Assembly: GCA_947175035.1 (NCBI GenBank)
Contig: CAMWLG010000001.1
Location: forward strand, 26,982-90,981
Direction: 5' to 3'
DNA: 64,000 nucleotides
Source of the DNA: an uncultured Lachnospiraceae bacterium
GTDB taxonomy: Bacteria > Bacillota > Clostridia > Lachnospirales > Lachnospiraceae
Below are positions 41,163 to 60,392 of the stretch, piece after piece; within the stretch, counting starts at the first letter, position 1; each line of letters starts with the position of its first letter. The notes beneath the pieces were generated by a model. It saw only the letters and a list, made by a program, of their open reading frames with translations. It had not been told where the DNA came from and did not search any database. Both the position numbers and the translations under genes were made by a program.

Positions 41163-41170
41163 TACAGTGA

Positions 41171-45491: not shown

Positions 45492-45533
45492 ATTTTGCGG
45501 CAGGAGCGACAAATCAAGGGGGAAGTCAATAAA

Positions 45534-45887
45534 ATGCTATGTGAAAAATGTAAAACACAAATGATTTATTTTCGTGAGAATTCAGTACAAGGGTGGACAT
45601 GTCCGGTTTGTGGCTGGGAAATATTAACAACATTTATTGATCAAATACATCAAGATATGACAGAATACAGTATATGCACAAAAAGAATTACGAATATTGA
45701 TCAAGACAAAATCAAGGTAATTTCCAAAATATCAGGGGTTAATTATATTGTTGCTAAGCAAATGCTTGAAAAAGAAGGTATTTGTATATTAAAAGCAAAA
45801 GCTATAGATATCCAAAAAGCAATATATGAGTTAGAAAAGGTAAATATACCATTTGAAGTAACCCCTGAGGTATCCTGGAATTATTGA
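45534..45887 (+). CDS. Zn-ribbon + L7/L12-C-terminal-like hypothetical protein
   Basis: CEKC...CPVCGW; SD AGGGGG; AT-rich. Confidence 0.65.
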   Translation: MLCEKCKTQMIYFRENSVQGWTCPVCGWEILTTFIDQIHQDMTEYSICTKRITNIDQDKIKVISKISGVNYIVAKQMLEKEGICILKAKAIDIQKAIYELEKVNIPFEVTPEVSWNY

Positions 45888-45921
45888 AATTGCGGAAGAA
45901 TCGATATAAGGAAGCAGAACT

Positions 45922-46207
45922 GTGGATAATATAATTTTTGAAAAATATGGCAAGATAATGAGCTTATTGAATTAAAAATATCTGCTAAATCAGAATTTGT
46001 TTCAGCTTATCAATGTGTTTATTGCCGGCTGACTGGTCAGGGCATGTAAAAATTGAAGTTGATGTTGAAATAGCTGATAATGACACACGAGATCATAGAT
46101 GTTGCTTTTATGTAAATAGTGAATTGGGGTTAATAGAGCAGTTAGGCATGTCATTAAAAGACTTGATAACAGAGCAAGTGGGATATGAAGTATGTTTGTG
46201 TAGGTAA
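45922..46207 (+). pseudogene. Degraded hypothetical gene
   Basis: GTG start with SD. Three consecutive protein-like frames (VDNIIFEK / IWQDNELIELKISAKSEF / LLPADWSGHVKIEVDVE) are joined only through frameshifts. Confidence 0.45.
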
Positions 46208-46260
46208 TTCATAAAAGCCTTGAAATATAATAAGATTCTGTAGATTGGGGAAAAGATAAA

Positions 46261-46737
46261 ATGATAAAAATTTACCGAACACATGATATGCCTCTGAAAT
46301 TCAATGTAGATACTCTGAGAGGGATGAAGCTGGATAATACGTGTTTTCACAGATGTTTACTAAATAATTTTAATATGTCTAATGCAAGTTTTGTAGGCTG
46401 CGATTTTTGTTCGGCAAAAATGCGAAAATCGGATTTTAACCATTCTAATTTTGATGAAAGTAGATTAATTATGGTGGAAGGAAATTCGAACTTTGATTAC
46501 TGCACATTTAAGAAAGCATTAGTATTACACAATAATTTTTGCGGTTCTTCATTCCAATATGCAGATTTTTCTGATTCAGTAATTAAAAACGACGATTTTT
46601 CCAAATGTGACTTAAGAGGTGCTAAAATCACATGTGATGGATTAGAAAGCTGTTCGTGGATAGATGCGATATACGATGACTCTACCTTGTGGCAGGAAGA
46701 TTTTAAGGCGTATGAATATGGGGCAATAAAAGTCTGA
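46261..46737 (+). CDS. Pentapeptide repeat protein
   Basis: A/S-x-F/L-x-x repeats (ASFVG CDFCS AKMRK SDFNH SNFDE; ADFSD; CDLRGAKI). Confidence 0.85.
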   Translation: MIKIYRTHDMPLKFNVDTLRGMKLDNTCFHRCLLNNFNMSNASFVGCDFCSAKMRKSDFNHSNFDESRLIMVEGNSNFDYCTFKKALVLHNNFCGSSFQYADFSDSVIKNDDFSKCDLRGAKITCDGLESCSWIDAIYDDSTLWQEDFKAYEYGAIKV

Positions 46738-46768
46738 AGTAACCTACATACAAAAGGGCGGTGATGAA

Positions 46769-47134
46769 ATGAATTCTAAGTGGGGATTATATCCATGGTT
46801 TATAGCACATGGTGCTGATTTGATATATCCTGCTGATTTGGAGGCTTTTATACAAGAGGATCCCTATTGTAAGGTGTTTGAATGTATAGAAGAAAGCGAC
46901 TATATAACATTAAGGTACAATAACAATTGCTTTAGAGTGAAGGATAAGTTGTTTGAAATTGTGCCAGCTCCAAAATATAGTTTTGGAGAAATTGTGAAAA
47001 TTAAAGAATCGGGAGAAGAGGCTATTATAAGAGATATTATATGGCATTATAAGAGACACGAGCCCTATTACTACTTAATATCTATTAAAGGCAAAAAGAA
47101 GTCAAAAAGATACTTTGAATCAGATTTCGAGTAA
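46769..47134 (+). CDS. Hypothetical protein (SH3-like, toxin-locus-associated type)
   Basis: WGLYPWF...; intact AT-rich ORF with SD GGCGGTG. Confidence 0.65.
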   Translation: MNSKWGLYPWFIAHGADLIYPADLEAFIQEDPYCKVFECIEESDYITLRYNNNCFRVKDKLFEIVPAPKYSFGEIVKIKESGEEAIIRDIIWHYKRHEPYYYLISIKGKKKSKRYFESDFE

Positions 47135-47219
47135 AGTATACTTAAACCCAAACACAGAGTTTGAGACAAAAATAGCACAATGACAAATCAATAAATTGAA
47201 ATAGAAAGACAGGTGACTT

Positions 47220-47771
47220 ATGGATAAAGAAATAAGAGCAGTATATACAAACAATACAATCAGAGTATATCAGGCATATAATAAATTTATTGCAAATGAA
47301 GCAGTTGCGAAAGGAACATTTGGAAGTAATTTCAAACGGGATAGAATGACATGGATAAAACCCTCATTTCTATGGATGATGTATCGATGTGGTTGGGCGA
47401 CAAAAGAAAATCAAGAATGTGTATTAGCTATTGATATGAAAAGAACAGCCTTTGATTATCTTGTAAATAATGCGGTTATGTCAACGTATCAAGAAGAACT
47501 TTATGGTAGTTATGAGGAATGGAAAACATTAATACATACTTCGGATATTCGAGTGCAGTGGGACCCTGAGCGGGATATCTATGGAAACCCGTTAAAATAT
47601 CGTTCTTTACAGCTTGGTTTAAGAGGAGAAGCAATCAGTAAATATGTGGAAGAATGGATAGTAAATGTGACGGATATTACACATTACGTCTTGGAACTGA
47701 AGGATATGATTTCTGTTAAGAAGGATATATCGGAATTGTTGCCTGACGAAAAGGTATATCAAATAAGCTAA
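47220..47771 (+). CDS. DUF4291-like family protein
   Basis: IRVYQAY, RMTWIKPSFLWMMYRCGW, VRVQWDPERD-like motif, RSLQLGL. Confidence 0.85.
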   Translation: MDKEIRAVYTNNTIRVYQAYNKFIANEAVAKGTFGSNFKRDRMTWIKPSFLWMMYRCGWATKENQECVLAIDMKRTAFDYLVNNAVMSTYQEELYGSYEEWKTLIHTSDIRVQWDPERDIYGNPLKYRSLQLGLRGEAISKYVEEWIVNVTDITHYVLELKDMISVKKDISELLPDEKVYQIS

Positions 47772-47914
47772 TGTAGGCAATTTCTGTGGTAGATGATGGG
47801 GCGTATGATTTTACGGTCTTTACAGTTGATATCCATTGCATTATTTGTAGAAAGTACACATGTCTACTCATAGTACTGAACTGTAGTTTTGGGAAGTATC
47901 CGGAGAATAGGATT

Positions 47915-48700
47915 ATGATAGAGTTTATTAAGGATAATAAGATTGAATTTCAACTAAATACAGATTTGCAAGGCATTGAGGACATACTTATGTATATTAA
48001 AGAGCTAAATAATAAAAATGTAAAATCTCCAAAAATATTATATTCAGGGACTACAAGGAATTTTGAAATAGAACTTGATACTGATGTAGATGAACTGATA
48101 ATTAGCAAAGATGTTGTAAAGATATATATGGACGATGAAGAACTGGAGTATTTTGAAGAAAGGTTAAAAGATGCCTTAATAAGTAGATGTTTTTATCCAG
48201 CAGAAATGTTTGAAAAAAAATATAAAAACAATTATGCGACTATATACTGCGATGTAACTATGAAATACTTGTTATTGCAGTTCGAGGAAGAAAAATTTTG
48301 GTTTGAATTAGATGATGAGGGATATGCATATCGTCAGATTGTATCGGATGAATATAACCAGATGCATGTTTCGTGTTTGGAGGATTGCCTTGTGGAAGAT
48401 CCAATTAATGAAGAGGATATAGACGGAAGTATTATTCATTTGACGGAGCAAGAATTTGATACTTTATGGCAATCTGTCTTAAAAAAGTACAGGAAGCAAT
48501 GGGAAGGCATTAAAAAGAGATATCCTGTCGGGGCTTACGTTCAAGGAGTGAATAGTTATTCTTATCCGCAAGGGACTATTATTAGAGGCAATGATTTTAT
48601 TGCAATATATACAGGTGATGAGCCCTTTTGTCTTAACAAATTAGTTCAATACAAAGTAAAAGCATATGATGATATGGATATGTGGTTGGTAGTTGGGTAA
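47915..48700 (+). CDS. Hypothetical, apparently a two-gene fusion (immunity-like)
   Basis: Likely start ATG 47915. An internal in-frame ATG at 48260 begins a distinct MKYLLLQFEEE...YAYRQI domain. Confidence 0.6.
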   Translation: MIEFIKDNKIEFQLNTDLQGIEDILMYIKELNNKNVKSPKILYSGTTRNFEIELDTDVDELIISKDVVKIYMDDEELEYFEERLKDALISRCFYPAEMFEKKYKNNYATIYCDVTMKYLLLQFEEEKFWFELDDEGYAYRQIVSDEYNQMHVSCLEDCLVEDPINEEDIDGSIIHLTEQEFDTLWQSVLKKYRKQWEGIKKRYPVGAYVQGVNSYSYPQGTIIRGNDFIAIYTGDEPFCLNKLVQYKVKAYDDMDMWLVVG

Positions 48701-48821
48701 ATGCAATGTCAGAAAAAAGCCATAAAACTGAAAAAAGCGATATGGAGGTGTATTGGAGCATAGTATCACAGATAAAAAATAAGCTGTAAATAGAAATACT
48801 GGAAAGGCTTGGTAAATTATA

Positions 48822-49274
48822 ATGCAGAATACCATATCTAGAGAAAAGGCAATTCAATTAATTAGTGAAATACGCGACGTTGTTGAAAGAAAAGTAGAGT
48901 TATCCAAGTATTACGGAAGTGCTTTTTTAGAAAGTAATGAGGAAAAAACAGAATTGGAGATAGAAATACAAGGTGTTAGTAACGGCTTTTTATCAGAGAT
49001 ATTATGTGCAATTACAGGCTATGATATTGAAGTTTGTGGAGAAGTGGAAAAGTTGTTCCCATGTCCTTGTTGTGGACTTAGAACATTAACCGAAATTTAT
49101 AATTTAAATGAAGGAACCGGTTATGATATATGTCCCTATTGTAATTGGGAAGATGATGGAACTACTGATATAAAAGATTATAGGTCCATTAATAGAGGAA
49201 GCATAGAGGATTATCGTAATAAAATCCAAAAAAATCATAACAAATATTATATAAATAAATGGTTTGAACAGTGA
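48822..49274 (+). CDS. CPCC cysteine-rich domain protein
   Basis: FPCPCCGLRTL...YDICPYCNWEDDG. Confidence 0.85.
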   Translation: MQNTISREKAIQLISEIRDVVERKVELSKYYGSAFLESNEEKTELEIEIQGVSNGFLSEILCAITGYDIEVCGEVEKLFPCPCCGLRTLTEIYNLNEGTGYDICPYCNWEDDGTTDIKDYRSINRGSIEDYRNKIQKNHNKYYINKWFEQ

Positions 49275-49352
49275 AATCAAACATAGATAAAACAATGAAA
49301 AACTACGAGGCATTTGAAAAAGGGTTTTGGATAGATGAGGGAGAGAATGCGA

Positions 49353-50081
49353 ATGAAAATCATTAAAAATACCATATTTATCTTATTGTTTCTAATCTTA
49401 AGTATTTCCACCGCTCTTTTGATATATCTGCACTTTTTTGCATCAAATGACAATGACCTTTCCGGGGAGTGGACTGCAGAGCTGGACATGACGGAGCAGG
49501 CCGCTGTCACAGCCCTCAGCTGGCTGCAGGACATAGAAGCCGTCTCCATATCTCTGGAGGATATGGAGGCCTATATGCAGGATTTGACCATTCAGGTGAA
49601 TCTGACTTTGGAGCAGACCGCCCGTTCTGAGGGAACCTTCCACTGCCGTATCCTGCCGGAAAGCTATGATGCCTGCAATCAGGCTGCCTACGAGGCATTT
49701 GCCGTGGCTTTTCGGGAGCTTGCGGCCGAGAGGCTTCGCATGGCGGGCTATACGGAAGGCACAGACGAGGAATCCGTCGAGGCTCTTGTAACCGAGACTT
49801 TTGGGATGTCCACGGTCGCCTATCTGATGACTTGCGGGCCGGCGCTGCTGCCTTCCATGGAAGAACTACAGGCCCAATATGACGGCAGTGGCACCTATAA
49901 AGCCGAAGAAGACATTCTGACCAGACAGTTTGACTCCGGAGCGTCTGTCACCACAAAGACGGAAGGCTATATCCGAAAGGATTCTATCCTGATTTTGTCC
50001 GAGGAGACCGATTCTGTTTCCTTTGGTTTCTTATCGGATCATTATCCCATGATATACACTTTGGAACAAACCCAGGATTAA
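49353..50081 (+). CDS. Membrane-anchored hypothetical protein
   Basis: N-terminal TM; GC higher than its neighbours. Confidence 0.7.
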   Translation: MKIIKNTIFILLFLILSISTALLIYLHFFASNDNDLSGEWTAELDMTEQAAVTALSWLQDIEAVSISLEDMEAYMQDLTIQVNLTLEQTARSEGTFHCRILPESYDACNQAAYEAFAVAFRELAAERLRMAGYTEGTDEESVEALVTETFGMSTVAYLMTCGPALLPSMEELQAQYDGSGTYKAEEDILTRQFDSGASVTTKTEGYIRKDSILILSEETDSVSFGFLSDHYPMIYTLEQTQD

Positions 50082-50122
50082 TCATTTGAGATGCGTGGGA
50101 AATGCACAGAAAGGAAGATTCA

Positions 50123-51589
50123 ATGAAAACAATCCTACATAAAATAAGTTTCTTAATAACAGGTTCCCTTATATTGCCCGCAATCCTGGTCTGTTCAACT
50201 TTGCCGATCAGAACAGCCGCGAGCTTCGAGATTTCCGGGAATTGTCAGGCACAGGCGGATAACGGTGACACATACACTGTAAAAACCCTGGATTATGATT
50301 ACGATCACAACACATATATCTCCCTGCGGGACATAGCCATGATCCTTAAGGATACGGACAAAGCCTTTTCTCTGGAAATCACGAAAAATACGGTCTCCCT
50401 GAATGTGGGAAATGCCTACACGCCCGTGGGAGAGGAAAATGTCCCTTGGGAAAGCGGCAGAAACCCAGACATTTCTCTGCGGCGAAACGAATTCAAGGTA
50501 AGCGGACAAAAGGTATCTTATCATACCCTGATTGTGAGACAGTCCTCCGGCTATTACGATTGTTTTATGATGGCGGCAGATATCGCCATGATCCTAGATG
50601 CGGACATCACTGTTTCCGATTCAGGCTCTTTGGAGATACACACACAGGAGCCTTTCAGCATCTCACCTGTTTCGTTGGAGCAGGCGGGCTATTTTTACGG
50701 TGTCAACAGCGTGCTGGTAGGAGATGCCACCACAGGGGAAATCTATTATCAGTATCAGTCCGAAGCGGCCTACCCCATAGCCAGCACCTCCAAGCTTATG
50801 ACTTGTCTTCTGGCTATGGATGCCATCTCGGCAGGTCAGATCACCCTTGAGGAACAGGTCACTATTTCTAATGCCGCTCAGGCGCTGGCCGTCTCAGGCG
50901 ATGGAGTGCTTCCATTGGAAGCCGGAAAACAGATTAGCGTACAGGAGCTTTTGCAGGGTGCCCTTCTGCCTTCCAGCAATGAATGCGCATTGTGCCTGGC
51001 TGAAACTATCGCTGGTTCGGAGGAAGCTTTTGTCCGAATGATGAATCAGAAAGCGCTGGATCTGGGACTTTCCCAGGCGGTCTTTTACAACTGCCACGGT
51101 CTGCCCTCCTACACGGAGGATACGGTTCCCTCAAAACGTCAGAACCGTATGAGTGCAGAGGATATGTTCTGGCTGGTATCTTACCTTTTGAAAGTTTATC
51201 CCCAGATCACGGACATCACTTCGCTGGAAAGTGTTGTCTTACCGTCTCTTGACCTTGAAGTGCGCAATACCAATCCGATTCTGCACAATCTGCCCGGAGT
51301 CACCGGCTTGAAAACCGGAACTACCAACAAAGCCGGAGCCTGTCTGGTCACTTCCCTGACTGTGGGTGACGGAGCCTTGGGACATGATCTGGTAGTTATT
51401 GTTCTGGGTACTGAGGATTCCATAGAGAGGGGGCGCGTTTCGGAATTGTTGGCCAGATACGCCCGGCAGACCTTTTATGCGGGCATAGAAACAGTGGAAG
51501 ACGGAGCATCTGCAAGGCCCTCTGAAAATCTGCCCATACACGCCGAGGCAGCAGTGGATTGGATTCTTCGGACTGCAAGAAAGCATTAA
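50123..51589 (+). CDS. D-alanyl-D-alanine carboxypeptidase (peptidase S11)
   Basis: IASTSKLMT (SxxK), PSSNE (SxN), GLKTGTT (KTG); signal peptide. Confidence 0.88.
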   Translation: MKTILHKISFLITGSLILPAILVCSTLPIRTAASFEISGNCQAQADNGDTYTVKTLDYDYDHNTYISLRDIAMILKDTDKAFSLEITKNTVSLNVGNAYTPVGEENVPWESGRNPDISLRRNEFKVSGQKVSYHTLIVRQSSGYYDCFMMAADIAMILDADITVSDSGSLEIHTQEPFSISPVSLEQAGYFYGVNSVLVGDATTGEIYYQYQSEAAYPIASTSKLMTCLLAMDAISAGQITLEEQVTISNAAQALAVSGDGVLPLEAGKQISVQELLQGALLPSSNECALCLAETIAGSEEAFVRMMNQKALDLGLSQAVFYNCHGLPSYTEDTVPSKRQNRMSAEDMFWLVSYLLKVYPQITDITSLESVVLPSLDLEVRNTNPILHNLPGVTGLKTGTTNKAGACLVTSLTVGDGALGHDLVVIVLGTEDSIERGRVSELLARYARQTFYAGIETVEDGASARPSENLPIHAEAAVDWILRTARKH

Positions 51590-51667
51590 TCGGCAGGATT
51601 GCCGACGACAGTGCTGCATAGGTACAATATAGGCACTATATTTTTCAAATATCAAAAGGAAAGAAAA

Positions 51668-52108
51668 ATGGAAATTATTATTGGTGAAGAGAACGTCAAC
51701 TTAGGAGATGGCGGTCAGATTACCGGAGAAATTTATTTTAAAATAAATGATTATTACTTTCCGGAAAGAAGATGGAATGATTTTTTTGTAACTATTTTAC
51801 AGTGGTGGGTTCATAATTACATAACTGCAATTAGATCTAATTCATACACGTTTGAATTTCATTTTATGGATGGTCCGTATTCGGTAAAAGCAGTTTTAAT
51901 AGAAAAAAATTTGTACGAAATTCGGTTGTTAATGACAAATGAAAATAATAATACAGAGATTGTGACAACACATGTTTGCCCAAAAGAACTGCAAGATATG
52001 TTAATAAAGGCATGTAAAAGGGCTTTTAAAGTACTATGGTTAGCAGAGATACCAAGTGATAAGGCTGTCGGGTTAAAAAGCTTATATGAGGAATTAAAAA
52101 AGTTATAA
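51668..52108 (+). CDS. Immunity-like hypothetical protein
   Basis: YFPERRWNDFFVTILQWW...FHFMDGPY; AT-rich. Confidence 0.6.
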   Translation: MEIIIGEENVNLGDGGQITGEIYFKINDYYFPERRWNDFFVTILQWWVHNYITAIRSNSYTFEFHFMDGPYSVKAVLIEKNLYEIRLLMTNENNNTEIVTTHVCPKELQDMLIKACKRAFKVLWLAEIPSDKAVGLKSLYEELKKL

Positions 52109-52227
52109 TCAAGCACATAATCTTGCTTTTTATGATTAGATTGAACTCTGTGATGATATGGAAGTTCCTGAAAATGGGTGTTATGTTAAGGAAACTGGCA
52201 TTATTATGGAGTAATGGGGAATATGAA

Positions 52228-52632
52228 ATGATAAATAAGATTATTGATAATATTACAACTTTGTTTGTGTTTATAATGACATGCGTAGTTAGTTTTGTTT
52301 TATCAGTAGCCCAAAGTAATGATGTCAATCTTAGTGGCAGAGATTTATTGATTTTTTTAATTGGATTTTGGGGAAGTGTGATATGTATAACAATACGATA
52401 TGTGTTTTTGTATTTGGAAGCAATAAAGCAAAATAGAGTAATTAAAAAGATATTTATGCTATTGTACTTAATAGTAGGAAGCGGTATGTTTATACTGATG
52501 TTGATAGTAGTTTTTCAATTAAGTGATTTTTCACTGAAACATGATGTTTTATCGTATTACAATGCATATCAAGTTTTTATGCTGTTGTCGTTAATATTCC
52601 AGTGGTTAGGAGAAAAGTTATTTGAAAAATAG
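52228..52632 (+). CDS. Four-TM membrane hypothetical protein
   Basis: Four hydrophobic segments; AT-rich. Confidence 0.6.
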   Translation: MINKIIDNITTLFVFIMTCVVSFVLSVAQSNDVNLSGRDLLIFLIGFWGSVICITIRYVFLYLEAIKQNRVIKKIFMLLYLIVGSGMFILMLIVVFQLSDFSLKHDVLSYYNAYQVFMLLSLIFQWLGEKLFEK

Positions 52633-52793: not shown

Positions 52794-53257
52794 TTGAAAA
52801 TAAATAAATTGAGATTAAAGGATATTTTAAAAGATTACGAAGTCTGGGAACAGGAGTTTGAATATGCAGAAGTACCAGGTATTGCTGAAATATTTGGCTA
52901 TTATATCGTTTTTTTCGACCTGCAAAAGATTTATGCAATACAGTGGCTATTTCTATTTCGTCTGACGAATATGTAGAAACCTCACTAATTCCTTTTGCAA
53001 ATTTAGTTTTGAGGGCTTTGGATATGAACCTGAAATTTGGTGAAAGCACCCTTGAAGAAATCAATAGTATATACGGTACTGCTGATTGGAAGGATGATAT
53101 TTTTGTAGATGGGTATAGATATCATTATTTGATAAAACCTGATCTGCTGATGGTATTTACAATTAGGAAAAAAGTATTATGGGGTTTGGAGATTTTTACG
53201 GACGAGGAGATGGTTAAGGACATTGCTGATGATAGAAGATTGGATGCTATTTGGTGA
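52794..53257 (+). pseudogene. Frameshifted paralog of 57868..58332
   Basis: Split into ORFs 52779..52976 and 52943..53257 by a T7 run (52909-52915); the intact reading needs T8. Confidence 0.75.
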
Positions 53258-53380
53258 AAGCTTAGTTTTCAACGTTTTCTGGTAATCAGCTTATCATGAT
53301 ACGATAATAGGACAGCCTGCTCTTCACCACCCGCCTCAACGGAGCTTTCACAGCCTTTGTCCAGAGAAGGAAATGAATAT

Positions 53381-53758
53381 ATGATAATACGATATTTTGT
53401 TTATGCACAACAAAAAGATGAATCTATAGAAATAGTAGAAGATACATTAAAGATAATAGATGGCGATATTGTTTTAAAGGAATATTTAGTTATTGAGCCA
53501 TATTGGAAAATTGATGGCATGTATACGGTTGAACTAGGTATAAAATTTAATGACAAAACAAAACAAATCAAATCCTTTTTGGATAATTTATCAGATTACT
53601 GGATAACGTTTGGAGAGCCGGTGGATGAGATATTAACGTCTCAAAAAGGACAAAACTGCTATATTAAAGACAATAGAATAGAAATGATTAATATTTTTTT
53701 TGAGTTATCAAGTGATTCAAGATATAATGATACTGGTTTACAAATTGGCAAGCTTTGA
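53381..53758 (+). CDS. Immunity-like hypothetical protein
   Basis: IEPYWKIDG motif; AT-rich intact ORF. Confidence 0.6.
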   Translation: MIIRYFVYAQQKDESIEIVEDTLKIIDGDIVLKEYLVIEPYWKIDGMYTVELGIKFNDKTKQIKSFLDNLSDYWITFGEPVDEILTSQKGQNCYIKDNRIEMINIFFELSSDSRYNDTGLQIGKL

Positions 53759-53854
53759 AAATCATTTCTTTTTTATATTCATAATGTCATAAAGATACAT
53801 TTGGCTGGAAATATACTTACTGTATATCCCCAAAAGTAGCAGGAGGCTGTTGTA

Positions 53855-54193
53855 ATGAATTTTTATATAGGGAATTCAATAGATGAGATTAATTTCCAAG
53901 ATGACAACGTAGAATTTTCCGATGAGTTGCAACATTTTATCTATAAAATGGATATGAGAGGACAAGTGTCTATTGACGTGAGTAAATTGTGCCAGATTGA
54001 TCCCTATGATAATGTTAAAGTTTCTAAAAAAGATTTGCCTCAAATAACCGAAATATGCAATTATATTTTAGGCACAGAATTGCTTCAGAATTATAAGGGA
54101 CCAGATGAAGGCAGACAAATGTTGCAAGATTTATTAGAGATTACACAAAAAGCAATGTCAAGCGATTCAGGACTAGTTTCGATAGGAGATTAA
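53855..54193 (+). CDS. Immunity-like hypothetical protein
   Basis: SD AGGAGG; LCQIDPYD; ends in GLVSIGD. Confidence 0.65.
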   Translation: MNFYIGNSIDEINFQDDNVEFSDELQHFIYKMDMRGQVSIDVSKLCQIDPYDNVKVSKKDLPQITEICNYILGTELLQNYKGPDEGRQMLQDLLEITQKAMSSDSGLVSIGD

Positions 54194-54311
54194 TGATTGC
54201 CCCGTATATTTTATAGGTGGTGAATGATATCAACTTTGGTTTGATGTTGATGGTAATTATGCTGGATTAAAATGGAGTGGTCATACTTTAATGTTGTTGG
54301 GAGGAGACGAG

Positions 54312-55238
54312 ATGGATTTAAATATTAATTCACCATCATATTATACACAAGAGTACGGTGTTGATGATGATATATATTGGATGTGTAGAGAATTATCAAA
54401 CTTTGTCAAAGAGAAAAAATATAGTGATGTAATAAATATTATTGGCATAGTGCCAATTATTGCCCCCGCATCAGTTATAGAAAAAGGACTTTGTAAAGCG
54501 CATAAGAGGTGTGAACCTAAATCTGGTTTTGCCTCAGTAAGTCTACAGATTGATTATGAGGAATATGTTAACGCTGATACTGCTAATAAAAAGAGATTGA
54601 TTATAGACAACATATTATCGTCGGTAAAAGCTGTTTCCCAAAAGGGAAAAATAGATTATTGTTTATTTGCAGAAGATGTTCGAACTTTTTGTGAGAATAA
54701 TGGGGTAATGAATAAAACCATGATAAGATTGAAGGATATTAAGCAATTAGGATTATTTATTACGTGGAGATTATTATATTTAGGTGTACAAAGTGGTCAC
54801 ATTGAAACAGAGGAAGTTATCGAATATGCTATAGAAAAATTAGAGGAAGGGAGTGAACGAGAAGAAATACGTGAATTAGCAGGAGCATATGCGGAAGAGC
54901 ATGAGGAAATCTGCAATGTTTTGTGGAAATTGACCGAGCAAGAAGATACTCAAAATGATATTGAAAACAGAAAAATAAGAGCTGTTATCGTGAGTAGGGT
55001 ATTAAAAACTAAAAATAAAAATTGTATTAATGGGTTAATGGATATAACAGATTTGTGGATTGAATTGGGGTATCCGGATGATTCCCCACATATCATTCAG
55101 GGAAAGGGAAATTGCGTATCACCTAGTGAATATTATACGATGGATAATTACAATTTCCTTTATGAAAAGAATGTAGAGTGGTTGAAAATGGAACTTGAGG
55201 ATTTAAGAAAAAACAACAAAAATAATTATTCTTTTTAA
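54312..55238 (+). CDS. Fused immunity-like protein (Imm-type N-half + DUF2247-like C-half)
   Basis: N-half MDLNINSPSYY; internal ATGs at 54708 and 54720 start a C-half with ITWRLLYLG...WIELGYPDD. Confidence 0.6.
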   Translation: MDLNINSPSYYTQEYGVDDDIYWMCRELSNFVKEKKYSDVINIIGIVPIIAPASVIEKGLCKAHKRCEPKSGFASVSLQIDYEEYVNADTANKKRLIIDNILSSVKAVSQKGKIDYCLFAEDVRTFCENNGVMNKTMIRLKDIKQLGLFITWRLLYLGVQSGHIETEEVIEYAIEKLEEGSEREEIRELAGAYAEEHEEICNVLWKLTEQEDTQNDIENRKIRAVIVSRVLKTKNKNCINGLMDITDLWIELGYPDDSPHIIQGKGNCVSPSEYYTMDNYNFLYEKNVEWLKMELEDLRKNNKNNYSF

Positions 55239-55270
55239 AATTTTCATTAGGGAAACGCTGATTAGATTAG

Positions 55271-55627
55271 TTGCTTACTTCTTATGAGCAATTAATGCGT
55301 GATAGAGGAATTCCATCTACACTGACACCCGAAGAGAAGACGCTGTGTTGTGCACTGGATCTTCGGATGCAATATGAGGGTGGCACACCTTCTGTTGAAA
55401 CTCCTACTTTTAATGGTAATTCACGACCTTGGGATAATGGAGCAACGCCAAATTCCATATATGAGCAGTTTAATAGACAAGATTTTGACCATCCGCATTT
55501 TGTTAAAAATACTCAACAGTATTATCAACCGCACGAGCATAGTTACCATTACAATGAGAATGGTTATAGGGATGGTATATGGGATGGACCTCTTACACCA
55601 GGATATAATAATCTTCCTACACAATAA
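55271..55627 (+). CDS. Probable orphan polymorphic-toxin C-terminal fragment
   Basis: TTG start without a clear SD; G/P/N-rich (PNSIYEQ...RQDFDHPH...QPHEH...GP); directly upstream of an immunity-like gene. Confidence 0.4.
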   Translation: MLTSYEQLMRDRGIPSTLTPEEKTLCCALDLRMQYEGGTPSVETPTFNGNSRPWDNGATPNSIYEQFNRQDFDHPHFVKNTQQYYQPHEHSYHYNENGYRDGIWDGPLTPGYNNLPTQ

Positions 55628-55641
55628 GGAGAATTGATACA

Positions 55642-56679
55642 ATGAGTTATTTTTTATTTGGTTCTTTTAATTCAGTATATGATAAAGAATTATTAGAACA
55701 AGTGAAGTCATATGCATCTGAAAAAAACATTTATATCTGGTTCGGTGAGGAAATAACGTTTTACAAAGAGATACATAGAATGTTGGAAGAGCAGAAATCG
55801 GATGGAAACATTAAATTTGCGATTACATCAGAAAACCAACCTTGTAATAGTAGTGATGTACTTTTTCCCTTCGATAAATTTTCTAGTGATGTACTGTTTG
55901 CAGATGAATCCAGAAATTTTTACAAACAGTGTTGCAAGGATAACATAAATATATTATTCGACTGTTTGAAATATCTAATTGACTCATTGCATATTAGACA
56001 GGTAGAAATATTTGTTGTTGAAGGATATGATGATATTTTTCGAAAAAAAGTATGCAGCATTGATGAACTAAAACAAGATTTCCTTTGTCAAGTAGAGGAT
56101 AAAGTAGCGATAGAATCTTGTATTTATCGTGTAAAGCTGCTTGACAACTCGAGTTTCTATATTCAGGCTGGTAATCCTATGATACAATGTATAGCAGATC
56201 GCAATGATAAATCTTTGGCGGATGCGATTGAAAGTATGTTTCTTCTAAAGACAGAGAGTGCTGTACTGATGTGGAATCATATAAGCATTCCTTTATCATA
56301 TAAATATGATATTAGTTATATGATGGAAGACATTTTGATGTTGCTAAACATGCTGCAAAGCAGAGAAAAAGGAGAACTTACAATATGTTGGTTGCCTGAT
56401 ACTTTCAGATGTGACTGGACAATTAGGTGGGACACGGAAGAATTGAGTATTCATTCGCGATGGGAAAATACAGTTGGCAATTTAGAAAGGCTTTTAAATG
56501 AAAGACCTATTATATCTCTTAAGAAGGATGACTTTATAAAAGAGTGGAAGAGCATTTTGGGTATTGTAATTTCCAGCCTAAAAAAATGTGGATATGATGT
56601 AAAGGAGATAAAAGGTATGAAACAGTTAATTGAACAGTATAAAGGTATTATTGGAAATGGAATTTTATATAGTAGATGA
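55642..56679 (+). CDS. Hypothetical, apparently a two-gene fusion (immunity-like)
   Basis: SD AAGGAG. The sequence character changes at ...KLLDNSS|FYIQAGNP (about 56140-56160). Confidence 0.55.
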   Translation: MSYFLFGSFNSVYDKELLEQVKSYASEKNIYIWFGEEITFYKEIHRMLEEQKSDGNIKFAITSENQPCNSSDVLFPFDKFSSDVLFADESRNFYKQCCKDNINILFDCLKYLIDSLHIRQVEIFVVEGYDDIFRKKVCSIDELKQDFLCQVEDKVAIESCIYRVKLLDNSSFYIQAGNPMIQCIADRNDKSLADAIESMFLLKTESAVLMWNHISIPLSYKYDISYMMEDILMLLNMLQSREKGELTICWLPDTFRCDWTIRWDTEELSIHSRWENTVGNLERLLNERPIISLKKDDFIKEWKSILGIVISSLKKCGYDVKEIKGMKQLIEQYKGIIGNGILYSR

Positions 56680-56692
56680 GGTGATACATTTT

Positions 56693-57355
56693 ATGGAAGT
56701 GAAAAAGACAATTGAAATCATGTTGTTACAATTTTTATCGGGTGAAATATCTAAAGAAGCTCTTTACGGTTGGGCAGTAAATATATTACATAAAATGCTT
56801 AAAGGAGATATTTTTGAGATAAAGAATTTAGAGATTTGGGGGATAATCACAAAATTAGTAGAAGTAAGTGAAAGTGACATTGATGATCGCTACTGTACTG
56901 AATCAGTACATAACATTTTGAATGTGTTATCAGGAGAAGAATGTGATGTATTTTCTTTTGTCATGCAAATTCCACAGAAATACATAGTTAATAACTTATT
57001 GGGTTTAGATAAACTTATAAATAAGTATTATTCGGATAAGCCTCTATTGGAAGATGAAATTCAGAATTTAAAATTATTATCTCAAAAGAAAATAGGTACA
57101 TGTAGTACGATTAATAGTCTTTTAGAATTTCAAATTATTGAAATATTGAAATTAGGATATACTTTTTTTGATGAGAATAATCTTAAATTCGATCTTAAGA
57201 GTTCAATATTTATAAGTGAAGAAGCGGCAATAAACTTTGAAGAGCGTGTGATATTAAAAGTGAGTGATTTATACAAATGCTATAAAGGCGAGAAAAGTTT
57301 TTTTGTTTCCGTACTGTACAATAATGGAATTGGAAATGTTTCCATACAGGTATAA
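56693..57355 (+). CDS. Hypothetical protein
   Basis: SD GAGGTG before ATG 56693; AT-rich intact ORF. Confidence 0.6.
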   Translation: MEVKKTIEIMLLQFLSGEISKEALYGWAVNILHKMLKGDIFEIKNLEIWGIITKLVEVSESDIDDRYCTESVHNILNVLSGEECDVFSFVMQIPQKYIVNNLLGLDKLINKYYSDKPLLEDEIQNLKLLSQKKIGTCSTINSLLEFQIIEILKLGYTFFDENNLKFDLKSSIFISEEAAINFEERVILKVSDLYKCYKGEKSFFVSVLYNNGIGNVSIQV

Positions 57356-57414
57356 ATGAAAATGTTTTCAATCACCCATCTGAGATGGGGAAACGAGATG
57401 AAAGAGGTATAAGT

Positions 57415-57810
57415 ATGGATGATATTTTCTATATGAGTCCTAAAAATATTAAAATAGAGGATATCGATGAAACTGCCAAAAGAGTAAGTGTTAAAAAGAC
57501 TTTTATTCCCCAATCAAAAGATGTCTTAGAGGTGGAATATTGTGATGGAGTTATGGCAAATTGGTTTTGTATGAGCCTAGAAGATTTTCAGGAATTAGAG
57601 GATACGCAGTTTTTGAGTGACAATAAAATAAAATCAATTTTTTGTATTTCCCATCATCCCAGTAGCTTTCCGGTAATATTGCCTCATATAAAAATATTGC
57701 TACAAGAGTATGGTGGTTGGATTGGAAATGATGCAGAAGGTTTTCAACCCTGCTTTAACATAGGGAATATAGATTTATGGCCTTGCTTAAACGAAATGAA
57801 AAGGACTTAG
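57415..57810 (+). CDS. Hypothetical protein
   Basis: SD GAGGT before ATG 57415. Confidence 0.6.
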   Translation: MDDIFYMSPKNIKIEDIDETAKRVSVKKTFIPQSKDVLEVEYCDGVMANWFCMSLEDFQELEDTQFLSDNKIKSIFCISHHPSSFPVILPHIKILLQEYGGWIGNDAEGFQPCFNIGNIDLWPCLNEMKRT

Positions 57811-57867
57811 CTAAAATCTAATAATTATGACTGAGTAGATAAATCCCTTACTCTGGAGGTAAAGGTT

Positions 57868-58332
57868 TTGAAAATAAATGAATTGAGGTTAAAGAATATT
57901 TTAAAGGATTACGACGTCTGGGAACAGGAATTTGAATATGCAGAAGTATCAGGTATTGCTGAAATATTTGGCTATCATATTGTGTTTTTTCGACCTCAAA
58001 AAAATTTATGTAATACAGTGGCTATTAATTTTCAACTTCAAGAGATAGAAGACACCTTACGAATTCATGTTGTTCATGTTGCAAATTTAGTTTTGATGGC
58101 TATGGGTATCAACGTAAAATTTGGAGAAACCACCATTGAAGAAATCAATAGCATTTATGGTACTGCTGATTTTATGGATGACCCGTGTTTGTATGATTCG
58201 ATTACATATTATTATTTGATTAACCCTGATTTGTTGATGGCATTTACAATCACGGGAAAAGTATTATTGGGTTTGGAGATTGTTGCGGACGAGGAGATGG
58301 TTAAGGACATTGTATCGGATGCTATTTATTGA
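57868..58332 (+). CDS. Immunity-like hypothetical protein (intact paralog of 52794..53257)
   Basis: TTG start after GGAGGT; shares its N- and C-terminal sequence with the upstream copy. Confidence 0.7.
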   Translation: MKINELRLKNILKDYDVWEQEFEYAEVSGIAEIFGYHIVFFRPQKNLCNTVAINFQLQEIEDTLRIHVVHVANLVLMAMGINVKFGETTIEEINSIYGTADFMDDPCLYDSITYYYLINPDLLMAFTITGKVLLGLEIVADEEMVKDIVSDAIY

Positions 58333-58534
58333 AAGCCTAGTTGTCATATTAATGGGGCCACTTTTAGGATTTGTGGCATACATAGAGGAACCTGGAGTTT
58401 TGAGATTATTTTTTAGATGTTGGAACATCGTCCTCAATAGTTTTCACCATGTAGTATGTATGATATAATAAGAGGGATCAAAGAGGAACAATGTCATTGA
58501 TTGCAGGTTTTAATATTAACAGGGGGTGTAAGTC

Positions 58535-59326
58535 ATGGAAATACTATATGTCAGAGGATGTCCATATGAAGACAATGAGGGTGAAGTTCTTAATTTACAT
58601 ATCAGGCTGGATGAAGGAGATGTTCTCACGGAAGGCGGAAATATTCAAATTGAGATGATGGATGACTCTGTAATTGAAAGAGAAGTTAAAATCATCAATC
58701 CCCAATGGGCAGGAGATTACGCAGCAGTTTGCGAAGAGGCAAAACAATGGAAGCAGTCAGGGGAAACATTGAAAGAAATAAAGGGACCGGGGGAGTGGGA
58801 TATTGTGGTCATGCATGTCCCGTATCATGAGGTGAAAACGCAGGAGGAGATACAAGGCAGGGACGCTATGGATGAATTCCTGGAGGATTTGAACAGTAAA
58901 GTCTGTATTTCACCATTTAAAGAACTTGATGCCGGTGAGAAGAGTATTCATGACTTTGTGGTGGAGGGGTATTCTGTTCCAGCCAAGGTCATAGCATATC
59001 TGCGGACTGAGAATTTTTATATGATGAGTCTGGGGCTATATGAACATCCTTTTAAACCGGGAACAACTCTGTGCGGGCCATATACATATACTGACGGATA
59101 TTATTACTGGGACAGGGATACTTGGAAATATGTGTTGAAATACCATGTGACACTGCCCCAGGAATTTATTGATCATGTCATGTCGGATGCGGGAACAAAG
59201 TTTCTGGAAGAACAGACGGGACAAAGCAACTCATGGGCGGACAGGATTAAGGAGCTGAAAGAGCAGGAAGGTACATTATGCCTTTTGCCGGAAGATGCGG
59301 GAAATATGGAATTGGAGGATTTTTAA
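58535..59326 (+). CDS. Two-domain hypothetical protein
   Basis: C-half TDGYYYWDRDTWKYVLKYHVTLPQEF, a motif type I associate with toxin-locus genes. Confidence 0.65.
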   Translation: MEILYVRGCPYEDNEGEVLNLHIRLDEGDVLTEGGNIQIEMMDDSVIEREVKIINPQWAGDYAAVCEEAKQWKQSGETLKEIKGPGEWDIVVMHVPYHEVKTQEEIQGRDAMDEFLEDLNSKVCISPFKELDAGEKSIHDFVVEGYSVPAKVIAYLRTENFYMMSLGLYEHPFKPGTTLCGPYTYTDGYYYWDRDTWKYVLKYHVTLPQEFIDHVMSDAGTKFLEEQTGQSNSWADRIKELKEQEGTLCLLPEDAGNMELEDF

Positions 59327-59420
59327 AGTAGAAAGAATAAATGCGCTAATGTAACAGTTAGTGCATTTTTCTGATGAAAGCAGTTGAAATTTTGATAAGC
59401 GAGATGTAAAGGTAATAATA

Positions 59421-59771
59421 ATGGATTGGATAAGTAGCATAAGTAACATGGATAATACAATACATGATATTTGTATAAAAGATTCTTGCTTGATTGTATA
59501 TATCAAAACATGGGATCAGAAAATTAGGCAAATTACCTTTTCGGACTATTATGCTTTCAAAGAAAAAAATTCTATAGGTAGGGAGATAGGAGATATACTA
59601 ATTCAAACAAACTCTACACTGTTAGAAGAATTGAAAGAAGATATTGTAAATGGTGATGGCACAATCGATGAAATAGCAGATGTCAAAAGTATGGTATTTT
59701 ATGATTCGTGGAACGAAATGATACTTTTGGAGGTTTTAGGCAAAAACATAACGTATAGTGACTGCGTTTAA
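59421..59771 (+). CDS. Immunity-like hypothetical protein
   Basis: Intact AT-rich ORF containing HDxxI. Confidence 0.6.
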   Translation: MDWISSISNMDNTIHDICIKDSCLIVYIKTWDQKIRQITFSDYYAFKEKNSIGREIGDILIQTNSTLLEELKEDIVNGDGTIDEIADVKSMVFYDSWNEMILLEVLGKNITYSDCV

Positions 59772-59873
59772 GCTGTTTATTGCATTTCCGCTATAGTCAT
59801 TTGGAAATGGTGAATGCCGGACGAATGCGACTTCCCATGCTTGCTTACAACTTATATTAGGATGGTGATTGTG

Positions 59874-60392
59874 ATGGAAAAAGTAAAATTATATAACAGT
59901 ATAATTGATACAAATATTCAACATAAACTCCCTGAGGCAGGCTGGTGTACGGATTTGGTTCAATATGCCACATATAAATGCGGAATAGAAGGGATGATAT
60001 CAACAGCTTTTTTATTTTGTCCGGAGATTGTTGAAGTGAAGGGTTATATTTTTATAAAACAATTTTTTAATTGTGCTGAAGGCAAAGAACTGGAATATTT
60101 GAAAAGCTTGGAAGAACAGTACCAATATAATAAAAAGGATATTGAAATGAGTGTTAATTCGTGCAGCATTGGAGATTTCTTTGTAGGGGATACAAGAGAG
60201 TTGATGGATGATGACGATATCATTTCCCAATTTGCACATGCCTTGGTTTACTTTTGGAAGTGCAGGGTGCGGGATCTTTTTCCTGAAAGAAATATTGTAG
60301 TTGAATTGGGATACGAATTAATGGGCGAGTTGGGTTTAAGTATTACATTGTATGAAGACACTTCTTCCCATACTGGAAGGAATGGTATATAA
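59874..60392 (+). CDS. Immunity-like hypothetical protein
   Basis: FLFCPEIVEVKGYIF...FPERNIVVE; SD GGATGG. Confidence 0.6.
   Translation: MEKVKLYNSIIDTNIQHKLPEAGWCTDLVQYATYKCGIEGMISTAFLFCPEIVEVKGYIFIKQFFNCAEGKELEYLKSLEEQYQYNKKDIEMSVNSCSIGDFFVGDTRELMDDDDIISQFAHALVYFWKCRVRDLFPERNIVVELGYELMGELGLSITLYEDTSSHTGRNGI

Follow-up and report, generated by a model that had tools for sequence, protein, structure and literature searches.

Acquired interbacterial defence clusters of the AID and rAID-1 types neutralise T6SS effectors of Gram-negative Bacteroidales and are carried on mobile elements, and the rAID-1 clusters have a tyrosine recombinase and repeats between their genes. Further known systems are WapA of Bacillus subtilis and the orphan rhs-CT/rhsI modules that follow main rhs genes. 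The AID and rAID-1 clusters of Bacteroidales were reportedly described by Ross et al. in 2019. They are mentioned in PMC10470768 and 10.1101/2025.05.03.651265, and WapA/Rhs in Gram-positives is treated in PMC12704120. Garrett et al. reported strings of esaG/tsaI T7SS immunity paralogues in Firmicutes (2022; PMC9484751). Zhang, de Souza, Anantharaman, Iyer and Aravind described heterogeneous polyimmunity loci and polyimmunity proteins, of which Imm44 and DUF2247/Imm38 are typical locus members; they reported extended loci of this kind in Firmicutes and noted that extended arrays and fused polyimmunity proteins tend not to co-occur (2012, Biol Direct 7:18; PMC3482391).

In this study, we analysed a window, that is, the whole stretch of 64,000 nucleotides from an uncultured gut Lachnospiraceae bacterium, in which ~21 small AT-rich genes lie on the same strand at 45534-60392 (Table 1; genes are named by their first position). 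The region is very probably a heterogeneous polyimmunity locus, a store of mutually unrelated immunity genes that lacks toxins and was acquired horizontally. Loci of this kind are well described, and the system is not new; the sequence-only reading had taken it as a Firmicute equivalent of the Bacteroidales clusters, and such loci have been known in Firmicutes since 2012 (PMC3482391).

As in the loci of Zhang et al., structurally unrelated immunity genes stand here in tandem, co-oriented and closely spaced without an adjacent toxin, Imm44 and DUF2247/Imm38 are present, immunity domains are fused, and the content varies between relatives. Unlike in those loci, most families here (45534, 53381, 53855, 55642N/C, 57868 and 59448) are outside the 2012 catalogue and Pfam, a native gene pair interrupts the row, an extended array is combined with fusion proteins, and no XerC/D-type recombinase is adjacent to the array. 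The AID and rAID-1 clusters likewise hold orphan immunity genes of gut bacteria against toxins that the bearer does not make, with signs of interspecies transfer and variable content, but the toxins relevant here are of the RHS/PT-HINT class and come from Gram-positives, and searches for a recombinase, a junction repeat or mobile-element genes gave nothing. The orphan rhs modules share the toxin class; the genome's own RHS locus on contigs C78, C119 and C105 has their layout, 57868 is a paralogue of an immunity gene in that locus, and the 55271 stub is left over from one of these modules, whereas the window has no main rhs gene and a toxin-tip fragment precedes only one of ~20 genes. The esaG/tsaI strings are also tandem immunity genes of Firmicutes that exceed the encoded toxins and evolve by recombination, but they are homogeneous arrays of one family against T7SS/LXG-type toxins, whereas here nearly every gene belongs to another family and LXG and WXG100 are absent.

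Layout and integrity of the array

The row of co-oriented, small AT-rich genes was confirmed by the ORF listing and the public gene calls for the identical contig, which give 23 plus-strand genes in succession at 45438-60392, and by the GC profile (0.31-0.38 at 44-49 kb and 52-60 kb, ~0.48 in the flanks). The exception within the array is a block of 0.44-0.50 at 49353-51589, which holds a membrane protein/PBP pair with a GC of 0.50. The membrane protein is present in 18 of 60 genomes of the genus and adjoins the PBP gene in all four that were fetched, and the pair shows 90.6% nucleotide identity to the closest species. It is native, does not consist of immunity genes, and splits the array into sub-array A (45.5-49.3 kb) and sub-array B (51.6-60.4 kb).

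Table 1. Features of the array, with the native pair between its two parts
Feature	Position	Strand	Basis or remark
117-aa Zn-ribbon protein, immunity-type, unclassified family	45534..45887	+	first gene of sub-array A
158-aa pentapeptide-repeat protein, immunity-type	46261..46737	+	Pfam Pentapeptide E 2e-11
121-aa DUF6960 protein, immunity-type	46769..47134	+	Pfam DUF6960 E 2e-17
183-aa DUF4291 protein	47220..47771	+	Pfam DUF4291 E 1e-71
261-aa protein, no family assigned, candidate fusion	47915..48700	+	N-terminal ~112 aa immunity-type
150-aa CPCC zinc-ribbon protein	48822..49274	+	Pfam Cys_rich_CPCC E 5e-9
Native pair: membrane protein (242 aa) and Peptidase_S11 D-Ala-D-Ala carboxypeptidase (PBP, 488 aa)	49353..51589	+	Pfam Peptidase_S11 E 6e-53
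146-aa protein, first gene of sub-array B	51668..52108	+	no family match
152-aa hydrophobic protein, probably membrane	52174..52632	+	several hydrophobic stretches in translation
Frameshifted pseudogene, paralogue of 57868-58332	52794..53257	+	tblastn, two frames
125-aa immunity-type protein, unclassified family	53381..53758	+	homologue context (L054)
112-aa immunity-type protein, unclassified family	53855..54193	+	homologue contexts
308-aa polyimmunity protein, Imm44 + DUF2247 (Imm38) fusion	54312..55238	+	Pfam Imm44 E 2e-8, DUF2247 E 2e-27
RHS toxin C-terminal-domain stub, 118 codons, TTG start, no SD	55271..55627	+	C-terminal matches
345-aa protein, two immunity-type genes fused in frame (N half 1-165, C half ~170-345)	55642..56679	+	standalone homologues
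220-aa protein, weakly toxin-linked	56693..57355	+	distant homologues
131-aa protein	57415..57810	+	distant homologues
154-aa immunity-type protein, unclassified family	57868..58332	+	three copies in genome
263-aa protein, GC 0.43	58535..59326	+	202 homologues
107-aa immunity-type protein, unclassified family	59448..59771	+	homologue in L095
172-aa protein, last array gene	59874..60392	+	no family match

Intergenic gaps in the array measure 13-373 nt, and SD-like motifs were found 5' of ~15 of 22 array starts, which agreed with the claim that most ORFs have their own SD. Terminator-like sites over 41.1-61.0 kb were not more frequent than in shuffled sequence. The CPCC, DUF4291, DUF2247 and pentapeptide assignments were confirmed by Pfam; the family-model search gave no match for 52174. 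RHS repeats and PT-HINT had zero matches in the window, where no full-length toxin had been noted. No recombinase was found at the array, and no repeated sequence between cassettes or at junctions.

Two to three gene fusions and one frameshifted paralogue occur among the array genes, and here too the earlier claims held. The paralogue belongs to a direct repeat (52780-53271 and 57854-58346; 84-87% nucleotide identity). In tblastn, residues 1-45 were encoded at 52794-52928 and residues 40-151 at 52910-53233; this copy is split over two frames and is therefore a pseudogene. The component halves of the fusions occur as standalone genes in other genomes. Imm44 and DUF2247 are separate genes elsewhere, and the fusion of the two was found in 0 of 69 metagenome loci. 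The N half of 55642 has 94% identity to a standalone 166-aa gene in another genus (g87, L023), its C half has 43-57% identity to standalone genes of ~175 aa in six genomes, and the fusion junction is visible in the DNA. No homologue of 47915 was detected in 400 genera of the family, and this gene is a possible fusion because its N-terminal ~112 residues are of the immunity type.

Toxin genes beside the homologues

It had been proposed that homologues would be found beside toxin genes, and 10-11 array genes have homologues directly 3' of toxins, as judged from one to three contexts per family with the exception of Imm44: 45534, 46261, 46769, the N part of 47915, 53381, 53855, both halves of 54312, the C half of 55642, 57868 and 59448, with the N half of 55642 linked via its stub. 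Pfam matched nothing in several of the upstream "toxin" ORFs, which were called from their position, from visual reading of RHS-core motifs or from similarity to one another. Three immunity families each co-vary with one conserved toxin-tip family across genera. Among the suggested LXG, RHS and WXG cognates, RHS/PT-HINT toxins were observed next to the homologues, and LXG and WXG100 had no match in the genome. The genome itself encodes an RHS protein of >4572 aa with a Sec signal, and its RHS locus is fragmented over the three contigs named above.

Homologues of 45534 (35-48% identity) start at or over the stop codon of the upstream ORF in three genera (L052, L053 and L056), in L052 within an RHS locus, and these upstream ORFs have a common C-terminal toxin-like domain (40-55% identity). 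A homologue of 46261 (51% identity) was found in a PT-HINT toxin module (L026) with the order toxin, 55642C-type gene, pentapeptide gene and RHS fragment. Those of 46769 lie directly 3' of an ORF ending in an RHS core (L050, 66% identity) and of a 319-aa ORF (L055), and both upstream ORFs carry a common 148-aa C-terminal domain (59% identity). The N-terminal 112 residues of 47915 show 54% identity to a 121-aa ORF on a human-gut contig (L122); this ORF belongs to an RHS locus and lies directly 3' of a 362-aa ORF that has no Pfam match and is RHS-related by eye only.

For sub-array B, a homologue of 53381 (40% identity, L054) is flanked by a PT-HINT+Ntox17 toxin ORF on one side and an orphan 903-aa RHS ORF on the other, and homologues of 53855 were found within an RHS locus (L030, 33% identity), next to toxin-like ORFs (L062) and close to the end of a contig (L051, 61% identity). 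Standalone Imm44 homologues lie directly 3' of RHS proteins of 2058 aa (L035) and 2892 aa (L093) and of a PT-HINT toxin (L034); RHS repeats were present upstream of Imm44 homologues in at least 16 of 45 assessable metagenome loci, and a homologue of the DUF2247 half follows an RHS ORF in L081. Two 55642C-type genes follow toxin tips (L026 and L030) that are 77% identical to each other. The paralogue of 57868 on contig C105 (66% identity) starts 3 nt past the stop codon that ends a PT-HINT toxin ORF, and two more orphan toxin/immunity modules come after it. The homologue of 59448 (88% identity) is directly 3' of a 360-aa ORF in a human-gut contig (L095); Pfam gave no match for this ORF, and the RHS-core end motif at its start was read by eye only.

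The last ~53 residues of the 55271 stub match the extreme C-termini of proteins of 136-613 aa, several of which carry RHS repeats or PT-HINT; a weak Ntox24 match also occurs among them. The stub also matches the C-terminus of a 397-aa ORF (L099), whose initial RHS-like repeat motif was read by eye.

Toxin linkage is weak or absent for about eight genes: 48822, 51668, 52174, 56693, 57415, 59874, the DUF4291 gene and 58535. A full-length homologue of 48822 (66% identity) is in another low-GC array of ~20 genes (L049), with two short ORFs judged by eye to be toxin tails. The homologues of 51668 are weak, the best (30% identity, L057) being a solitary low-GC gene; the only one of 59874 is a 61-aa fragment (57% identity, L039), and those of 57415 reach 22-27% identity, with housekeeping genes in the sole context examined (L042). 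Homologues of 56693 (31-40% identity) occur in two loci (L032 and L036) with transposase-like ORFs and ORFs bearing RHS-core-like motifs, as read by eye, and are not directly adjacent to the latter. In 9 of 10 other genomes the DUF4291 gene stands alone among housekeeping genes, with Tpt1/KptA sometimes near, and the family is predicted to be ADP-ribosyltransferase-like (PMC12522546). Its product is probably an enzyme of the ART fold rather than a classical immunity protein, and the immunity role assigned to it found no support in toxin linkage. The 202 homologues of 58535 are all hypothetical and without Pfam match, and in six of six contexts examined they were solitary, with toxins absent nearby; this is probably not an immunity gene. 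Both genes look like unrelated passengers. The description as an array of immunity-like genes holds for most of the row, which also includes the two native genes and one toxin-tip stub.

Turnover between species and alternative explanations

The turnover comparison covers different species only. The closest species retains only the DUF6960 tail, the DUF4291 gene (95% amino acid identity) and the last 210 nt of 47915 (98.6% identity), together with a different cassette; it has an unrelated 136-aa ORF at the position of 48822 and no sub-array B. This remnant adjoins the membrane protein/PBP pair, on another contig. Since the closest species keeps remnants only, the content turns over, in agreement with an acquired, variable array that is not syntenically fixed. 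The common pieces show 92-98.6% nucleotide identity, against 74-82% for core genes, and one cassette reaches 94% in another genus. A hot spot downstream of eno had been suggested but is not conserved; island genes follow eno in 0 of 12 congeneric species.

Alternatively, the row might derive from the orphan toxin-tip/immunity modules that once followed a main rhs gene in a conventional RHS locus, of which deletions of the main gene and nearly all tips left an eroded tail; it would then be a decaying remnant and not a selected defence store. The stub survives 14 nt before an immunity-type gene, its last 64 nt accompany that gene at 94% nucleotide identity in another genus, a pseudogene is present, and alternating orphan tips and immunity genes as in the RHS loci of this genome (C105) and of human-gut contigs (L081 and L122) could yield such a row. 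However, no trace of RHS repeats or PT-HINT is left in the window, tblastn with 19 toxin tips found no second stub, the frames are intact in 20 of 21 small genes, the in-frame fusions and short gaps would fit maintained expression, and the array surrounds a native gene pair instead of lying behind an rhs gene. We regard this explanation as unlikely; it overlaps with the polyimmunity reading because an origin from RHS modules is part of the latter.

A generic island of accessory or anti-phage defence genes, or the cargo of a prophage or ICE, in which a few immunity-family genes would be incidental, is a very improbable reading of the region. The low GC, the patchy distribution, six PHROG families of unassigned function (each matched by one protein), an SMC_N/AAA_23 gene adjoining the 263-aa gene in one contig, and two genes just upstream, an EndA/Endonuclea_NS_2-type nuclease (25.5 bits; Pfam cut-off 27) and a possible PD-(D/E)XK gene, are compatible with it. 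Against this, PADLOC models matched 0 of 24 proteins, the family-model search of the region was negative for integrase, phage structural and conjugation genes, and a defence island would not account for the toxin-adjacent homologues of half the genes.

An Rpn nuclease had been placed at the head of the array; this gene, 3.2 kb upstream, has no Pfam or NCBIfam match, its alignment with RpnA of E. coli is confined to a 26-residue ExQS motif (E 0.055), and its 90%-identity relatives are in unrelated contexts, so that it can be called Rpn only tentatively, and it does not recurrently accompany arrays. A 24-nt direct repeat at 41192 and 45456 brackets only the Rpn/surface-protein/nuclease block, which therefore looks like a separate insertion. 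A recombinase-driven platform of the rAID-1 or integron type, in which this nuclease captures cassettes, is hardly credible: the ExQS motif, the 24-nt repeat and an Rpn-like fragment near another small array (L047) speak for it, but that repeat does not enclose the array, repeats between cassettes were not found, and the structure model of the "Rpn" product is too poor to use (pLDDT 47).

Proposed origin and role of the polyimmunity locus

Under the polyimmunity reading, the cassettes most likely started as toxin-tip/immunity modules of RHS loci and would have been joined by ordinary or illegitimate recombination. The toxin parts may have been lost afterwards, leaving the one stub at 55271, and some joins may have fused neighbouring immunity genes into polyimmunity proteins. 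Along with this route of assembly, we infer expression as an operon and protection of the bearer: each immunity protein would bind and neutralise one family of C-terminal toxin domains, and the toxins would be RHS/YD-repeat polymorphic toxins (WapA-like, PT-HINT-processed) of competing Lachnospiraceae.

Layout and gene content of the array

Sequence comparison gives good support for reading the array (45534-60392) as a fairly large polyimmunity locus, predicted to act against RHS toxins. A heterogeneous polyimmunity locus has been defined as a run of co-oriented, closely spaced and mutually unrelated genes without a toxin and with strain-variable content (PMC3482391). Imm44 and DUF2247/Imm38 are listed among the members of such loci and fused polyimmunity proteins were described (PMC3482391), and Zhang et al. 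stated that extended polyimmunity loci occur in Firmicutes (2012, PMC3482391). The array likewise has at least four unrelated immunity families in tandem, a common orientation with small gaps, no toxin apart from a tip stub and, at the species level, a content that differs from that of a close relative. It is a known kind of locus and no new kind of system.

The host assembly comprises 3.55 Mb in 151 contigs (92.7% complete), with the window on contig C1. The ORF listing and public gene calls showed an unbroken run of genes, all on the plus strand, with intergenic gaps of 13-373 nt and an SD-like motif at about 15 of the 22 starts. The GC content is 0.31-0.38 over 44-49 kb and 52-60 kb, against about 0.48 outside, and rises again to 0.44-0.50 at 49353-51589, where a membrane-protein/PBP pair separates sub-array A (45.5-49.3 kb) from sub-array B (51.6-60.4 kb). 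The frequency of terminator-like sites over 41.1-61.0 kb did not exceed that of shuffled sequence. The mean pairwise identity of the 24 proteins of the array region is about 11%, and the small ORFs of the array other than those assigned in the table had no match in Pfam or NCBIfam. These data confirmed the co-oriented, low-GC array of small genes, with pentapeptide, DUF4291, CPCC and DUF2247 members, that the sequence-only reading had described.

Its claims of a duplicated paralogue, a pseudogene and gene fusions also held. One family only is duplicated, and one of the two copies is frameshifted. Both halves of 54312 exist as separate genes in other genomes. In 55642-56679, the N-terminal half has a 94%-identical counterpart in another genus, where it forms a gene of its own (166 aa), and the C-terminal half matches standalone genes of about 175 aa in 6 genomes; at the junction in the DNA, an in-frame join replaces the stop of the first gene and the start of the second. 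47915 is likely a third fusion gene; its first 112 aa match a separate gene of 121 aa.

Features of the array region, the toxin context of their homologues, and their counterparts in the closest species, G049 (L-numbers, fetched loci with homologues in other genomes or metagenome contigs)
Feature	Position	Assignment	Toxin context of homologues	Counterpart in G049
eno	39805-41133	upstream of the 4.2-kb three-gene block that precedes the array
Bipartite motif, first copy	41168-41232	just past the eno terminator
Three-gene block, gene 1	41401-42309	302-aa "Rpn" gene
Three-gene block, gene 2	42515-44134	539-aa secreted repeat protein
Three-gene block, gene 3	44303-45175	290-aa EndA-like nuclease
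Bipartite motif, second copy	45353-45491	just before the first array gene
45534	45534		family starts at or over the stop of upstream ORFs in 3 genera; one within an RHS locus
46261	46261	pentapeptide repeats (Pfam)	behind PT-HINT toxin (L026)
46769	46769	DUF6960 (Pfam)	behind ORF ending in RHS core (L050)	last 90 nt
47220	47220	DUF4291 (Pfam)		92% nt
47915, N part	47915		behind ORF similar to that of L095, RHS relation read by eye (L122)	last 210 nt of 47915, 98.6%
48822	48822	CPCC (Pfam)		unrelated 136-aa ORF in its place
PBP	50123	Peptidase_S11 (Pfam)
Duplicated family, frameshifted copy	52794-53257
53381	53381		behind PT-HINT+Ntox17 toxin (L054)
53855	53855		inside RHS locus (L030)
54312, Imm44 half	54312	Imm44+DUF2247 fusion (Pfam)	behind 2058-aa RHS protein (L035), PT-HINT toxin (L034) and 2892-aa RHS protein (L093)
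54312, DUF2247 half	54312	DUF2247 = Imm38	behind RHS ORF (L081)
Toxin-tip stub	55271-55627	118 codons
55642, C half	55642-56679		behind PT-HINT toxin (L026)
Duplicated family, other copy	57868-58332
59448	59448		88%-identical copy behind ORF opening with RHS-core end motif, read by eye (L095)
Gene after the array	60447-61175	242-aa protein

Toxin genes beside the homologues

In a search for homologues, the concatenated array proteins served as queries against 400 genera of the family, and about 40 contexts were fetched; two candidates were scored per genome, so the homologue counts are lower bounds. The distribution was patchy, with homologues in at least 24 of 401 and at least 32 of 401 genomes (own genome counted), and 5 or 6 array genes had no useful homologues. 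Imm44, DUF2247/Imm38 and at least eight other unrelated families have homologues directly behind RHS/PT-HINT toxin tips, the C-terminal toxin domains of these proteins. Three immunity families (45534, DUF6960 and the C half of 55642) are each paired with one conserved toxin-tip family across genera (tips 40-55%, 59% and 77% identical), as cognate pairs would be expected to be. The tips concerned are those of L052, L053 and L056 for 45534, of L050 and L055 for DUF6960, and of L026 and L030 for the C half of 55642.

On contig C105 of the same genome, a 66% paralogue of 57868 begins 3 nt after the stop of a PT-HINT toxin ORF and is followed by two further orphan toxin/immunity modules, one with Endonuclea_NS_2. 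A scan of genome contigs for the 57868 family gave three loci, two of which encode 403-405-aa fusion proteins in housekeeping contexts. An additional scan for Imm44 homologues covered one metagenome collection, where RHS repeats lie upstream in at least 16 of the 45 loci with at least 1.5 kb of upstream sequence. A custom PT-HINT HMM, whose positive controls worked, found no PT-HINT in 69 metagenome loci, and RHS repeats alone were therefore counted there.

The window itself has no RHS_repeat, PT-HINT or LXG match, in agreement with the earlier observation that a full-length toxin is missing. Its single tip stub starts with TTG, lacks an SD and ends 14 nt before 55642. The last ~53 residues of the stub match the extreme C-termini of 136-613-aa proteins, several of them with RHS repeats or PT-HINT, and a sub-threshold Ntox24 signal is present. 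The final 64 nt accompany the next immunity gene in a genome of another genus, with 94% nucleotide identity. Judging from these matches and this co-travel, the array cassettes most likely originate from RHS toxin-tip/immunity modules. A search of the array gaps with 19 toxin tips gave no more stubs.

The other-genus copy (L023:4300-5200; genus g87, G146:C29) is a lone transferred cassette consisting of the stub tail and the 166-aa gene, 94% identical in nucleotides to the window. Short tandem repeats rich in TTTTCATGAAA lie on both sides of it, for example TTTTCATGAAAAGAGTGGAGA three times upstream, and may be an insertion-site signature.

The sequence-only reading had looked to LXG, RHS or WXG toxins as neighbours of the homologues. 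The RHS part stood, with PT-HINT alongside, but LXG and WXG100 had no match in the own genome at its 92.7% completeness. Contig C78 of this genome encodes a protein longer than 4572 aa that combines a Sec signal with fn3, PKD, DUF6531 and 17 or more RHS repeats, and additional RHS pieces are found on C119 and C105. The toxins predicted to matter for the array belong to the RHS/PT-HINT class and not to T7SS.

Turnover between species and genes outside the immunity reading

Cassette turnover, rather than fixed synteny, was borne out between species: G049 keeps only remnants and one different cassette, and sub-array B is absent from it. The remnants adjoin the membrane-protein/PBP pair, which is 90.6% identical in nucleotides to that of the window, and the eno gene of G049 (77.7%) sits elsewhere, away from them. 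The two genomes share 74-82% identity over core segments, whereas shared island pieces are 92-98.6% identical between species and a single cassette is 94% identical between genera. As the island pieces are more alike than the two genomes, their nucleotide identity points to recent exchange. An exact look-up of one array protein matched only the window's own contig. The suggestion of a hot spot downstream of eno failed, since island genes follow eno in none of the 12 congeneric species compared; synteny after eno is not conserved in these congeners, so no empty site is definable.

Four human-gut metagenome contigs (L093, L095, L116, L122) share one site in the chromosome, upstream of a 643-aa gene in convergent orientation. 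The contents of the site vary from a 2892-aa RHS gene with an Imm44-type gene, through orphan modules with transposases, to no RHS, and clearly illustrate how an RHS locus turns over between related strains.

Some genes of the region do not belong to the immunity reading. The membrane protein of the 49353-51589 pair occurs in 18 of the 60 congeneric genomes, and the pair (GC 0.50) is adjacent in all four fetched genomes; these are native genes, not immunity genes. The 263-aa product of 58535 has 202 homologues, all hypothetical; the six contexts covered are unrelated and toxin-free. In 9 other genomes DUF4291 stands alone among housekeeping genes, sometimes near Tpt1/KptA; a recent survey predicted an ADP-ribosyltransferase-like protein and gave NUDIX, Macro and Tpt1 as its neighbours (PMC12522546). 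In several genomes DUF6960 is followed by a gene for an ART-fold enzyme (window 46769-47771; L055:1422-2349; L068:6649-7376), which is DUF4291 in the window and G049 and Tpt1/KptA in L055. The two may form a two-part immunity, binder plus repair, against one uncharacterised RHS toxin tip. Directly after the array, the 242-aa protein is ferritin-like by eye and has a hydrophobic tail; it had no Pfam match and no homologue among 40 related genomes (24 of the same genus), and its gene may be part of the acquired region.

A longer bipartite motif, TTTTGCCGGAAyTACTTGAAT followed by the hairpin AAGCTGCAGAGG-TTTTTG-CCTTTGCAGCTT, includes the 24-nt direct repeat found at 41192 and 45456. As the two copies of the motif bracket only the 4.2-kb block, the block resembles an insertion of its own, after the eno terminator, whose flanks were duplicated. 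The 302-aa gene, which the sequence-only reading took for an Rpn nuclease gene, has more than 6400 family members in the database. Across Lachnospiraceae, the best 120 of these share 82-91% identity, and every one that bears a name is called "hypothetical". Such conservation between genera suggests that the gene is mobile or under strong constraint. It had no Pfam or NCBIfam match even at E 5 and no PDB match, and a plasmid tblastn was negative. Comparison with E. coli RpnA, a PD-(D/E)XK recombination-promoting nuclease, by hhalign aligned only 26 residues around ExQS (E 0.055, not significant), and its AlphaFold model (pLDDT 47) is too poor for a fold search. Relatives at 90% identity neighbour HTH regulators and metK. 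The secreted repeat protein has a 65% paralogue in the same genome (C38:30516-32189) and many weaker relatives there, and two similar proteins close an immunity array of another genus (L049:13200-16633). No signal peptide was seen in the nuclease, which looks cytoplasmic, lacks a trafficking domain and has a cysteine-rich tail; its EndA/Endonuclea_NS_2 match is weak (Pfam 25.5 bits, cut-off 27), and its PDB matches are 4qgo and 3owv (E 1e-3). The same fold also serves as an RHS toxin tip on C105.

Possible assembly route and comparison with known systems

Orphan rhs-CT/immunity arrays have a main rhs gene upstream and a tip fragment before each immunity gene, whereas the window has no RHS repeats and one stub. 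The rAID-1 loci carry an adjacent tyrosine recombinase and conserved inter-cassette repeats, and the array has neither: no ORF of 41-61 kb has a recombinase domain, as the sequence-only reading held for tyrosine recombinases, and no integron- or rAID-like repeat is common to the cassette junctions. The AID systems of Bacteroidales confer immunity to T6SS effectors and are carried on mobile elements, whereas the predicted cognates of the array are Lachnospiraceae RHS/PT-HINT toxins, and domain searches and PHROGs revealed no mobile-element genes in the region. T7SS immunity strings of the EsaG/TsaI type are tandem paralogues of one family in genomes with LXG/T7SS toxins; the array has a single duplicated family in a genome without LXG or WXG100, and an LXG/T7SS link was rejected. 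An anti-phage or prophage reading was also rejected, as PADLOC detected none of the 24 proteins and PHROGs returned unknown-function families only.

For the polyimmunity locus, we tentatively consider a route, itself rather doubtful, in which Lachnospiraceae would swap single immunity cassettes across species and genera without a dedicated recombinase or mobile element, via RHS modules that shed their toxin part. The toxin-tip/immunity modules would integrate by short homology and then lose the toxin part, and neighbouring immunity genes would sometimes be welded into multi-domain antidotes. If this is true, the array would be a Gram-positive functional counterpart of the Bacteroidales AID, made by a different route.

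The array adds a large polyimmunity example, of about 20 genes, from gut Lachnospiraceae. To our knowledge, few toxin/antidote pairs of Gram-positive gut anaerobes have been studied. The practical value of the array lies in concrete, uncatalogued candidate toxin/immunity pairs, as 6-8 families without Pfam assignment are tied to specific RHS/PT-HINT tips and are directly testable. The near-identity of single cassettes across genera suggests that immunity genes move among gut Firmicutes, much as they do among Bacteroidales.
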